From: Myxococcota bacterium
GTDB taxonomy: Bacteria; Myxococcota_A; UBA9160; UBA6930
NCBI GenBank assembly: GCA_965223415.1
Contig: OZ245002.1
Span: 5,568,001-5,632,000, forward strand
Direction of reading: 5' to 3'
DNA: 64,000 bases
Part shown: piece by piece, positions 10,270-63,733 of the stretch
Layout of the letters: each line of letters begins with the position of its first letter
Numbering within the stretch: position 1 is the first letter of the stretch
Made by a program: the position numbers and the translations under genes
Notes under the pieces: model-generated
What the model saw: only the letters and a program-made list of their open reading frames with translations
The model's database searches: none
What the model was told of the DNA's origin: nothing

Positions 10270-11505
10270 TCACAGGCTCCGCAGGGCGTCGACGGGGCGG
10301 GCGCGGCTCGCCTTGATCGCGGGATAGAGGGCCGCCAGGGCCGCTACGCCGAAGATCGTGATCGCCGAGCCGATCGGGTTCAGGGGCTTCAGCTTGAACG
10401 TCATCACCGGCTCCATGGCGATGATCTCCGCCATGCCCTCCATGTCCCCGCTCAGGGGGATCGGATGTCCCTGGAGGTAGAGGACCACCGGAAGGGCCAG
10501 CACGAGGCCGATCGCGAGGCCGATCCCCGCGAGCATCATCGATTCGAGGTAGACGACGCGGAAGATCGAGGCGGGCTTCAGGCCGAGAGCGAGCATCACA
10601 CCGAGCTCGCGCGCCCGCTCCAGCACCGACATCAGGATCGTGTTGAGGATCCCGAAGGCCACGACGACGACGAGGATGGCGAGCATGATGTACATCCCCG
10701 CATCGTCGATGAAGATGAACTGCTCGAGCTCCGGCATCACCTCGTTCCACGCGTGGAGCTCGAGGGTGCCGCCGGCCCGCTCGGCGAGGAGGCCCTCGAG
10801 GTCGCCCTCCAGGGCCTCCACGTGGTCGGCGCTCTCGGCCAGGAGCGCGATCTCCGACACCCGGTCGCCGTAGGCGAAGAAGGCCTGGGCGTCAGCCAGG
10901 GAGACCACGGCCAGGACGCGCTCCAGCGCCGGCTCGGGCAGGCGCAGGGTGCCGACCACGGTGAAGAGGTCGTAGGCGGTCTCCATCGAGTAGGCGACGG
11001 AGTAGAGCAAGAGCTCGTCGCCCAGCTCGGCACCCAGGTTCTGGGCGAGGCGCTCGCCGAGCACGATGCCGCGCGGCATGCCGTCGACGAAGACGCCGGT
11101 CTTCACCCGGGTCGGCAGGCTCGACACGCTGCCCTCGCGCTCGGGATCGACCCCGAAGAGCGCCACGCCGTAGGTCGAGCTGCCCTTCGACGCCAGCCCG
11201 AAGCCCACCACCCGGGGTGCCACACCCTCGACGCCCGGCGCGGTCTCGAGGCTCTCGAGCAGCTCCGGATCGAGCTCGACGAACTGCTCGAGGGTGCGCT
11301 TCTCCAGGTAGTCCTCGCCGGAGACCTGGAGGTGCCCGGAATGGATGCGCACCCCGTCCTCGATCATCTTCTCGTGCACGCCGGCCGCCATCGCGACGAA
11401 GACCACCACGAGGAAGACGGCAAACACCGTGGCCGCGACGGTCAGCCCCGTTCGCCGGACGTTGCGGCCGATGTTCCGCTTGGCAAGGCGGAGCTCGAGG
11501 CTCAC
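10270..11505 (-). CDS. ABC permease (FtsX/MacB/LolE family)
   Basis: LAKRNIGRNVRRT, MSVLERARELGVMLALG, LYPAIKASR. Confidence 0.92.
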   Translation of the reverse strand: MSLELRLAKRNIGRNVRRTGLTVAATVFAVFLVVVFVAMAAGVHEKMIEDGVRIHSGHLQVSGEDYLEKRTLEQFVELDPELLESLETAPGVEGVAPRVVGFGLASKGSSTYGVALFGVDPEREGSVSSLPTRVKTGVFVDGMPRGIVLGERLAQNLGAELGDELLLYSVAYSMETAYDLFTVVGTLRLPEPALERVLAVVSLADAQAFFAYGDRVSEIALLAESADHVEALEGDLEGLLAERAGGTLELHAWNEVMPELEQFIFIDDAGMYIMLAILVVVVAFGILNTILMSVLERARELGVMLALGLKPASIFRVVYLESMMLAGIGLAIGLVLALPVVLYLQGHPIPLSGDMEGMAEIIAMEPVMTFKLKPLNPIGSAITIFGVAALAALYPAIKASRARPVDALRSL

Positions 11506-11539
11506 GGGCCGCGTCCCAGCGCGAGCTGGGTTCTCGGGT

Positions 11540-12340
11540 TCAACGATCCCCTCCCTGCGTCAGGTGGCGCTTGGTGAAGATCGTGTCCTCGAACTCCTCG
11601 TCGAAGCGGATCTCGTGGATCTCGATGGCGGTCTCGTGCCCCTCCTTGTCGAGGGGCACCATCGACCACTTGTGCGGGTAGGGCCGGCCGCTCACGTCGC
11701 GGATCTCGGAGAAGCGCATCTCGCGGAGCCGCTCACCGCCTTCGTCGTAGAAGTCCTGGCGAAGAGGCGCCGAGCGCTCCACGTCGACCCAGGTGAGGAT
11801 CTTCCCCCAGACGACCGGTGCGTCCTCGTGGGGCTCGTACTGGAGCACGTAGGCCCGCGGGCCCGCGCCATCCGGATCGATCCCCAGCAGCGTGTGATCG
11901 TAGTCGTCGAGCTGGCTCGACTCGCGCACCAGATCGTCGTTGGTGAAATCGCTGCCCATCCAGCTCTGGAGCATCATCGACGGCGGGATGCGCAGGGTGC
12001 GCTCCACCCGCGGAATGTAGTTCCACATGTTGGGGTGCAGCTTCAGGAAGCCCATGCCCTTGTCCTTGGGCGGCCCGAGGATGCGGATGAAGGAGCGCTT
12101 CTTCGGGCGGTCGTCCCAGCCCTTGAAGGTCACCCGACGCGGCTCCGGCAGACGCGGCGAGACGATCGTCATCGTCGCCTCCATGTAGGAGGTCTGCCCG
12201 CGAAAGATGTCCTCCACCCGCTCGGCGATCTCGCGCCCCGTGAGGCCTTCCGGCGCCGGGTCGAGCGCATCGTCCTGGGCGAACGCGCCGCCCGCGACGA
12301 AGGCGGCTGCGAGCAGCGCGATCCTCCACTTCCACGTCAT
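11540..12340 (-). CDS. LolA-like outer membrane lipoprotein-sorting protein
   Basis: Signal peptide; MWNYIPRVERTLRIPPSMMLQSWMGSDFTNDD. Confidence 0.88.
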   Translation of the reverse strand: MTWKWRIALLAAAFVAGGAFAQDDALDPAPEGLTGREIAERVEDIFRGQTSYMEATMTIVSPRLPEPRRVTFKGWDDRPKKRSFIRILGPPKDKGMGFLKLHPNMWNYIPRVERTLRIPPSMMLQSWMGSDFTNDDLVRESSQLDDYDHTLLGIDPDGAGPRAYVLQYEPHEDAPVVWGKILTWVDVERSAPLRQDFYDEGGERLREMRFSEIRDVSGRPYPHKWSMVPLDKEGHETAIEIHEIRFDEEFEDTIFTKRHLTQGGDR

Positions 12341-12936
12341 GCGACGAGACCTCCCTTCAAGACCGACACCACCCCCGGCCAGTGGGCGAGCGGATCGTAG
12401 TCCGTGTCGACCGAGGCCTGCAGCAGGATGCCCTCGGTGACGCCGATCAACAGCGATGAGACGCTCGCGACCGGCGCCCGCTTCAGCTCACCCTGCTCCA
12501 TGGCGCGCTCGAGCAGGGCCTCGAGCTGTCCGCGGCTGCGACGGTAGGCCTCGGCAAAGCGCGCGCGCGAGGCGGGGTGCGCCAGGAATTCGATCCACGC
12601 CCGCATCAGATCGCGCCGCTCCATGACCGTGCGCAGCGCCAGCTCGCCGCCGGCCATGATGACGTCGAGGACCGGTCGCGTGCCGTCGTCGAGGGCCTCC
12701 CAATCCGCGAAGTAGCCCTCCATGAACCGGTCGAAGAGCGCGAGGAGCACCTCCTCCTTGCTCTCGAAGTGCCAGTAGAGGCTCCCCTTCGAGAGCCCCG
12801 AGGCCCGCACCAGATCGTCCATGCTCGCCGCGTGGTAGCCCCGCTCGGAGAAGCAGCGGAGCGCCGCGTCGAGGATCTGGGCACGTCGGACCTCGCGGGG
12901 CGCGCGGGTTCGCGGTCGGGAGGCGGGAGTCGCCAT
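12337..12936 (-). CDS. TetR/AcrR family regulator
   Basis: ILDAALRCFSERGY..SGLSKGSLYWHFESKEE; ATG at 12936. Confidence 0.92.
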   Translation of the reverse strand: MATPASRPRTRAPREVRRAQILDAALRCFSERGYHAASMDDLVRASGLSKGSLYWHFESKEEVLLALFDRFMEGYFADWEALDDGTRPVLDVIMAGGELALRTVMERRDLMRAWIEFLAHPASRARFAEAYRRSRGQLEALLERAMEQGELKRAPVASVSSLLIGVTEGILLQASVDTDYDPLAHWPGVVSVLKGGLVA

Positions 12937-12941
12937 GAACT

Positions 12942-12958
12942 GACTAGTCAGTCTAGTC
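12942..12958. promoter_or_regulatory. Putative TetR operator
   Basis: GACTAG-tcagt-CTAGTC palindrome immediately upstream of the TetR ATG. Confidence 0.6.
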
Positions 12959-62568: not shown

Positions 62569-63005
62569 GCCACGATCTCCACGCTTCCGCCGGCGGCCTC
62601 GACCTTCTCCTTCGCCGAGGCACTGGCGCGCTGGACCTTGATCGTGAGCTTGGCCGGGGCCTCGCCCTCGCCGAGCAGCTTCACCGGGGCCTTGCCGCCG
62701 ACGAGACCCTTGCGGGCGAGCAGCTCCACGTCGACCGTGGCGCCCTCTCCGAAGCCAGCGAGATCCCGCAGGTTCACGATGTCCACGGGCTTGCGGTGGA
62801 TGTTCGTGAAGCCGCGCTTGGGGATGCGGCGGACCAGCGGCATCTGGCCGCCCTCGAACCAGAGCGGCGTCTCCCTGCCAGCGGAGCGATGTCCCTGGCC
62901 CTTGGTGCCGCGTCCTGCCGTCTTGCCGGTTCCGGAGCCGGGACCCCGACCCACCCGCTTCTTCCGACGACGAGCGCCGTGCTTCGGCTCGAGCCGATCG
63001 AGCAT
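62565..63005 (-). CDS. rplO: 50S ribosomal protein L15
   Basis: RVGRGPGSGTGKTAGRG, FEGGQMPL..PKRGF. Confidence 0.97.
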   Translation of the reverse strand: MLDRLEPKHGARRRKKRVGRGPGSGTGKTAGRGTKGQGHRSAGRETPLWFEGGQMPLVRRIPKRGFTNIHRKPVDIVNLRDLAGFGEGATVDVELLARKGLVGGKAPVKLLGEGEAPAKLTIKVQRASASAKEKVEAAGGSVEIVA

Positions 63006-63007
63006 CG

Positions 63008-63187
63008 CTACTCCTCCACTCGAACGAGATGAGGAACCTTCAGGATCATCCCGCGCACCGACGGCGTGTCGTCAACTACGACCGTGTGGCGGATACGGCG
63101 CAGCCCGAGGCCGCGCAGGGTCGCCCGCTGCTTGCGGTCGTATCCGATGGAGCTCTTCACCTGGGTCACCCGGATCTTGCCGCTCAT
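63008..63187 (-). CDS. rpmD: 50S ribosomal protein L30
   Basis: [40 protein letters not shown] (read manually). Confidence 0.95.
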
Positions 63188-63678
63188 CGCGCCAGCTCCG
63201 CCCGACGCTCCTCGGGATCTCGCAGCTCGGTGAGTGCGCTGATCGTGGCATTCACGGCGTTGTGCGGGTTGTTCGTGCCCAGGTTCTTCGAGAGCACGTC
63301 GCGAACGCCAGCCGATTCGAGCACGGCGCGCACGCCGCCGCCCGCGATCACGCCGGTTCCCGCGGAGGCCGGCTTCAGCAGCACCCGCCCGGCCCCGAAG
63401 CGGCCGGTGATGGCGTGGGGCAGCGTCCCCTCGACGAGCGGCACGCGGACCAGGTTCTTGCGCGCCCGGTCCACCCCCTTACGGATGGCCTCCGGCACCT
63501 CGCCCGCCTTGCCGAGGCCGACGCCCACGACGCCGGCTCCGTCGCCCACGACGACGAGGGCACTGAAGCTGAACCGTCGCCCGCCCTTGACGACCTTCGC
63601 GACCCGGTTGATGTGGATCACCCGATCGTTCAGCTCGTAGTCGTTGGCGTTCAGCCGTTCCGAATGCTGGATCTTCAT
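63184..63678 (-). CDS. rpsE: 30S ribosomal protein S5
   Basis: [32 protein letters not shown]. Confidence 0.98.
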
Positions 63679-63733
63679 GCGTTCCCTCGGAACCGGATCG
63701 TTCTCTCGTTTTTCATGCGTTCCCTCAGAACCG
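63674..63733 (-). repeat. 22-bp direct repeat (period 38) of the rplR/rpsE junction
   Basis: TTCATGCGTTCCCTC(G/A)GAACCG at 63674 and 63712. Confidence 0.9.

Follow-up and report, generated by a model that had tools for sequence, protein, structure and literature searches.

The closest described counterparts of the elements dealt with here are MIRUs (interspersed repetitive units of mycobacteria), which were reportedly described by Supply et al. in 1997. As far as the accessible portions of the literature go, MIRUs are short intercistronic repeats that vary in copy number, carry a small open reading frame (ORF) overlapping the flanking same-direction genes with −4 coupling, and form a dispersed 40–100-bp family of 40–50 copies that has 4-nt direct repeats and is thought to insert (PMC12548453, PMC4473831, PMC3184786). 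Termination-reinitiation, as employed in bicistronic designs, is depicted in the accessible part of one of these sources as a short ORF delivering ribosomes to a downstream start via an overlapping stop/start (PMC12548453), whereas microhomology-mediated tandem duplication (MTD) is, in the accessible part of the respective study, mostly neutral, purged from coding DNA and raised when the flap nuclease Rad27 is lost (PMC13167724). The window analyzed here, i.e., the whole 64,000-nt stretch G000:C1:5568001-5632000 of a Myxococcota bacterium (G000, the source genome, being represented by a single 5.83-Mb contig, 71% GC, 97% complete), contains five operon junctions bridged by mini-ORFs that mostly reside within duplications of approximately 35 nt of the junction itself. 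This pattern is real, recurrent and well above chance, and is probably best explained by a lineage-specific, partly microhomology-mediated local tandem duplication process (~32–38 nt), the products of which are filtered by selection for translational coupling.

The small ORF found here, as in MIRUs, overlaps both of the contiguous same-direction ORFs. The units nevertheless differ from MIRUs in not being interspersed (for 74 of the 77, the rest of the genome holds no related family), in copying their own locus with no sign, in congener alignments of four junctions, of foreign DNA inserted between 4-nt direct repeats, in being 28–42 nt long (peak at 31–38) and not 40–100 bp, and in representing a kind of duplication that is also seen within genes and at lone stops. 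The likeness to bicistronic designs would lie in the delivery of ribosomes via the overlapping stop/start; the relay ORF here is, however, a by-product of duplication.

Junction Duplications within the Window

All seven mini-ORFs claimed by a preliminary description of the window, along with their start-to-start periods of 38, 35, 35, 38, 37, 37 and 38 nt, were recovered when the coordinates were re-read, all of them on the minus strand, and the names of the flanking genes agreed with the NCBIfam and Pfam profiles used for naming, the match of the permease to lolCE falling below the cut-off. That every junction carries a copy of itself holds for four of them, which are clear duplications (25–36 of 38 nt alike), whereas at the lolA-like/permease junction the divergence between the copies is too great for them to establish a duplication by themselves. 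Over 38 nt around the start, copy identity amounts to 36/38 at adk/rpmJ, 31/38 at thrC/ribE, 27/38 at rplR/rpsE, 25/38 at carA/carB and 19/38 at the lolA-like/permease junction; the last pair is not significant as a duplication (16 of 33 positions alike, with at least 17 being reached by 14.5% of unrelated junction pairs), and the case for this junction rests on its period of 38 nt and its double coupling.

The bridge at the lolA-like/permease junction is a 13-aa mini-ORF with a TTG start (11502..11543; the minus strand applies to all of the features in this paragraph), which shows a −4 overlap with both the lolA-like stop and the permease GTG. Three copies of a 35-nt unit occupy the thrC/ribE junction (28727..28833; single copy in four congeners), where two 11-aa mini-ORFs are found, the first of which (28777..28812) is linked through TGATG both to the thrC stop and to the second (28742..28777), itself TGATG-coupled to the ribE start. 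At carA/carB, two diverged copies of a 38-nt unit (45708..45782) hold a mini-ORF of 12 aa, which resembles the N-terminus of CarB in mimicry and has TGATG at both ends (45730..45768). The adk/rpmJ junction has 2.7 copies of a 37-nt unit (60587..60686) and two 11-aa mini-ORFs, one starting inside the ATGA stop of adk and ending 1 nt before the next ATG (60642..60677), the other ending 1 nt before the rpmJ ATG at 60603 (60605..60640). Two diverged copies of a 38-nt unit at rplR/rpsE (63667..63733), absent at this junction in 29 relatives’ loci, contain a 13-aa mini-ORF (63675..63716), which starts 8 nt past the rplR stop and ends in the ATGA of rpsE. The preliminary description had missed one more member of the same length class, an in-frame duplication of 36 nt that affects the 3′ end of a DivIC/FtsB-like gene (56739..56812) and gives rise to no mini-ORF.

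Two further 38-nt coupled units lie just outside of the window in the same ribosomal protein operon (G000:C1:5633959 and 5634251), and the extreme expansion of the duplication class is a perfect array in which a 38-nt unit spanning a GTGA stop is repeated 16.5 times (G000:C1:4526341-4526967). Gene-end duplications are denser beyond 3.5 Mb on G000:C1.

Repeats of this kind could arguably be long-read or assembly artefacts, and some of the arrays, including that of 16.5 copies, are indeed perfect. Separately assembled contigs from public runs (X1 and X3), however, bridge the thrC/ribE (X1, X3), carA/carB (X1) and rplR/rpsE (X1) junctions with 0 differences, although these runs may be the source samples of G000; at adk/rpmJ, the X1 contigs end at 60616 and restart at 60653, as expected from the exact repeat there. 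Two more runs, X5 and X6, contributed small pieces only. Copies are, moreover, diverged, congeners show the same class, and an artefact would not respect the reading frame. The chance of an artefact is close to negligible, and this reading is refuted for the class, even if individual copy numbers could be off.

Genome-Wide Distribution of Duplication Lengths

A period histogram was compiled for the whole of G000 with the insertion sequence (IS) copies masked, using a set of 5,296 genes predicted by our own hexamer-model caller. The distribution shows a peak: the six non-triplet periods between 31 and 38 nt comprise 65 loci, against a background of 39 loci spread over 31 non-triplet periods at 10–27 and 43–70 nt. 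The range of 35–38 nt put forward for the window falls within this peak, yet turned out to be only a sample of a wider one (28–42 nt, mostly 31–38 nt). At scores of at least 14, duplications cover both a stop and a start in 31 cases, a stop only in 52, a start only in 14, intergenic sequence in 51 and coding sequence in 370. The same peak is seen at 20 stops without a start within 60 nt, two of which belong to a dispersed repeat family, and strong matches inside genes show an in-frame counterpart at 33 nt (15 loci) and 36 nt (8 loci), with other triplet periods mostly having 1–5 loci each, except for 15 nt (10 loci). The offset of the stop within the unit is uniform from 0 to 37 (Kolmogorov–Smirnov (KS) p = 0.75, n = 38, with dispersed-repeat and misassigned rows removed), and upstream of the start the copies match over anything from 4 to at least 30 nt, with no fixed register. 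Since the peak also occurs at lone stops and in genes, and since there is no fixed register, the length pertains to the duplication and not to initiation. A length-constrained duplication process, one of the earlier proposals, thus exists, as witnessed by the genome-wide peak; neither its proposed targeting of translation-initiation regions, given the peak at lone stops and in frame inside genes, nor the equation of the unit with one ribosome footprint, given the lack of register at stops and starts, is supported.

The latter result also bears on a reading in which a piece of mRNA protected by the ribosome is converted back into DNA to form the unit, its length being that of the footprint. The length does resemble a ribosome footprint and there is an excess at gene ends, but neither the stops nor the starts show the fixed register, and reverse transcriptase (PF00078) and Cas1 were not found in the 97% complete G000, leaving this reading highly unlikely. 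The 16.5-copy array is devoid of spacers.

Scars of mobile elements with long target-site duplications were the other candidate raised for the window, i.e., the doublets would be target-site duplications left by an excised element with 32–38-bp direct repeats. G000 is IS-rich, and the CTAG-like insertion sites of several of its families include a stop triplet. The 13 multi-copy repeat families covered show target repeats of 4–9 or 17–18 bp, however, the one 60-bp match being a nested element, and no resident element with flanking repeats of equal length was found. Out of the 77 units, 74 have no family elsewhere in G000 (62 without any match, 12 with only 17–22-nt matches at 1–4 places), and the other three belong to a dispersed family, which is a separate repeat. 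IS target repeats were accordingly rejected as the source, and an excised element seems very unlikely.

Regarding the repeats and mobile elements themselves, a dispersed, possibly REP-like repeat of ~40 nt near gene ends occurs as direct pairs or an inverted pair, e.g., at window positions 42435-42514, with 45 matches at 39 loci genome-wide. Several IS families of G000 are bounded by CTAG-like sites, one of them having 17–18-bp target repeats, and window positions 13806-24086 are occupied by a nested IS cluster with transposases of the integrase-core/Mu-type, DDE_Tnp_1/DUF772 and DDE_3 kinds.

Translational Coupling and the Frame Filter

Co-directional junctions of G000 overlap by 4 nt in 787 of 3,562 cases and by 1 nt in 118, and a 3n+2 copy of an NTGA or TGATG overlap results, by arithmetic, in an ORF that is coupled at both ends. 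Periods of the 3n+2, 3n+1 and 3n types account for 38, 7 and 9 of the 54 start-containing loci, compared to 11, 15 and 13 of the 39 stop-only controls (Fisher p = 6.8e-5). The proposed coupling stood up against simulated duplications: 38 of the 54 mini-ORFs end −2 to +14 nt from the next start (18.8% in the simulations), 28 of them exactly overlapping it (15.5% in the simulations), while the remaining loci represent nine in-frame extensions and seven uncoupled cases. Most of the 37-nt cases suit the geometry of their own junction, as −8 and −14 overlaps and 1-nt gaps go with 37 nt, a −10 overlap with 32 nt and a 2-nt gap with 35 nt. Doubly coupled bridges, counted independently of similarity, peak likewise, with 13, 19 and 8 at periods of 32, 35 and 38 nt, 1–4 at the neighboring periods and 8 at a period of 14; such bridges occur in 44 of the 282 gaps within the range of periods 29–41 versus 38 of the 882 outside of it (p = 4e-9). 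These 44 bridge mini-ORFs hold their length and frame, and as many of them are near background identity, the frame outlives the sequence. Start-containing copies are frame-filtered, likely since selection removes those that break the ribosome hand-over.

A stronger role for selection would have the mini-ORFs positively selected as relays or tuners, with an extra round of termination-reinitiation adjusting the downstream expression and ~35 nt being a useful spacing. In line with this, junction loci are no less dense than stop-only loci (31 in 52.6 kb and 52 in 114 kb, respectively) though only one frame in three is allowed, the bridges at 32, 35 and 38 nt persist near background identity, and adk/rpmJ is duplicated both in G000 and in a congener (G001). 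Equal lengths are, however, found where no relay exists, four compared junctions are single-copy in most of the congeners, and a slower decay of frame-constrained copies could account for the density. A period that suits the junction entails coupling by mere arithmetic, for which purifying selection suffices, and positive selection for relays appears rather improbable.

Distribution among Relatives

By secY, the nearest named relatives are MAGs labelled Deltaproteobacteria or Myxococcota, at 67–70% identity, which gives a rough placement. The relatives considered include five congeners (G001–G005), a member of another genus (G007) and five others (G016, G018, G021, G022 and G031). Orthologous junctions, the comparison of which had been suggested for the window, are single-copy in congeners for thrC/ribE and rplR/rpsE, which are duplicated in G000. 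At adk/rpmJ, G001 possesses a duplication of its own, 32 nt in length (none is present there in G002–G005), the mini-ORF of which reads, by eye, as ending in the ATGA of rpmJ, and G005 has a 33-nt in-frame duplication at the end of carA. A tree of 10 genomes based on eight proteins groups G001 with G002 and not with G000 (support 96), and the adk/rpmJ events in G000 and G001 are likely independent because G001 is not sister to G000.

Non-triplet loci of 28–42 nt number 76 in ~5.6 Mb of G000 and 13 in 1.10 Mb of the five congeners (G001, 2 in 162 kb; G002, 4 in 382 kb; G003, 1 in 154 kb; G004, 2 in 184 kb; G005, 4 in 221 kb), with three more in 400 kb of G007. None were found in 800 kb of the other relatives (400 kb of G031, 140 kb each of G021 and G022, 60 kb each of G016 and G018), where ~9 would be expected at the genus rate (our own arithmetic, with kin not being independent). 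Among the 17 loci of relatives examined, six had a callable start, five of these being coupled, and six had no callable gene end. The duplication class is hence a lineage-specific trait, seen in all five congeners and one other genus.

Origin of the Duplications

In the congener alignments at four junctions, the filler is a copy of local sequence, some fillers being too diverged to assign. The youngest complete duplications have 0–11 nt of terminal homology, reaching at least 4 nt in 9 of 18 cases, compared to 3.2% at random, although this way of measuring errs somewhat on the liberal side and older doublets may have left some of the long arms behind. All 61 coding loci at scores of at least 20 are in frame. 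As in MTD, for which a Rad27/FEN1 flap model has been proposed, head-to-tail doublets of a single-copy local segment expand into arrays, microhomology arms exceed chance, coding DNA is depleted and most copies would be neutral. The homology of the young duplications fits MTD in part, as far as the accessible parts of the two sources allow (PMC13167724; preprint 10.64898/2026.02.28.708716). MTD differs in that no narrow length peak is reported and ‘stop codon’ does not occur in the main text of the study, going by its accessible part, which also indicates that its short-read detection drops beyond ~30 bp (PMC13167724), and in that half of our young events have at most 2 nt of homology while the flap domain of PolA in G000 looks intact. 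A literature search, which most subscription papers fell outside of, returned no report of a 32–38-nt peak, a stop excess or such junction duplications.

Staggered nicks ~35 nt apart that are filled in and then ligated by Ku/LigD end joining would be another route to such events; Ku adjoins a LigD-like gene in G000, and a homology of only 0–2 nt characterizes 9 of the 18 young events. Ku, however, was not found in G002–G005 (82–97% complete), although these carry the duplications, whereas G016, G021 and G031, in the sampled sequence of which none were seen, do possess it. Ku was therefore rejected as the cause, and end joining is quite unlikely to be responsible.

An origin of the duplications as slippage or flap-type replication errors is likely, and the local tandem duplication process that we favor would proceed as follows. 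The unit is copied from local sequence at any codon offset and with 0–11 nt of terminal homology. Duplications would arise in and around genes; within genes, only some of the in-frame ones (33, 36 nt) would survive, and over a lone stop any frame would, as the gene stays intact thanks to the first copy. Over an NTGA/TGATG overlap, a period of 3n+2 gives a doubly coupled ORF of 10–13 codons by arithmetic, other junction geometries presumably retaining the period that fits them, and the chain would be traversed by ribosomes through successive rounds of termination and re-initiation. Doublets may then re-expand (up to 16.5 copies) or decay with the frame held. As for the ~35-nt ruler, our guess would be a single-stranded intermediate shielded by protein, for which a long Okazaki flap is an example; one of the binding modes of SSB extends over 35 nt and a transcription complex covers a similar length, both being leads only.

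Several points weigh against this explanation, one being that it leaves the length peak unexplained. Microhomology of at most 2 nt in half of the young duplications fits it poorly. Stop-spanning copies (39 in 113 kb) are ~4x denser than those in short intergenic gaps (13 in 161 kb), and such an excess at an equal supply of microhomology means that gene ends may be favored by mutation and not by survival alone. In partial doublets, the filler matched the flanks at p ≤ 0.1 in only 12 of 71 cases, albeit in a low-power test. The coupling counts were obtained with a caller that scored starts more highly when they overlapped a stop triplet, with a window of −2 to +14 nt chosen once the data had been seen, and on an uncurated list of 54 loci drawn from 56 matches with periods of 23–42. 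The repair genes offer no obvious culprit either: the conserved acidic residues are all retained in the PolA 5′ nuclease of G000, which also has the motifs of MutS and MutL, and no loss of a repair gene follows the trait among the 41 genomes of the order (SSB in 40/41, RNase HII in 39/41, the 5′-3′ exonuclease domain in 41/41, ExoVII in 39/41). RecJ (TIGR00644) was found in 0/41 of these genomes, including trait-negative ones, and in 0/3 of another family in the taxonomic class, and the accessible part of a study in E. coli has kb-scale amplification unaffected by recJ loss (PMC1428787).

RecJ is present in 85 of 121 genomes of the phylum sample, and the single DHH protein of G000 gave no match to the RecJ model; judging by these profile matches, RecJ loss would be class-wide and at most a permissive background. 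A bolder version of the explanation, which we entertain only tentatively, would invoke an undescribed duplication pathway with a built-in ~35-nt ruler (a protein-protected single-stranded intermediate in a RecJ-less class), biased to gene ends and seeding dozens of bicistronic relay ORFs in core operons, which would be held at 10–13 codons past sequence decay as ribosome carriers.

Other Features of the Window and the Genome

A 155-aa Lys/Arg-rich repeat protein is encoded at window positions 1556-2065 (minus strand) by 15/18-nt units; it has no Pfam match and is histone-H1-like by appearance. Elsewhere on G000:C1, two partial matches to the 5′-3′ exonuclease domain (2441425 and 2781987), ~340 kb apart and each beside an IS copy, may be the halves of a single gene that was broken up by a rearrangement involving the IS. 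The GC skew of the contig is weak, with no switch at dnaA (2.83 Mb).

Biological Implications

The junctions described here amount to a natural selection experiment on translational coupling, in which dozens of independent insertions into operon junctions can be read against lone stops as an internal control, the surviving lengths being those that preserve the stop/start geometry. In their junction pattern, the duplications come close to MIRUs; it is the length ruler that calls for an explanation. The duplications provide a route for the birth of MIRU-like coupled minisatellites from local sequence, with no mobile element involved, and a sharp, lineage-limited peak at 32–38 nt would be indicative of a particular intermediate in replication or repair.

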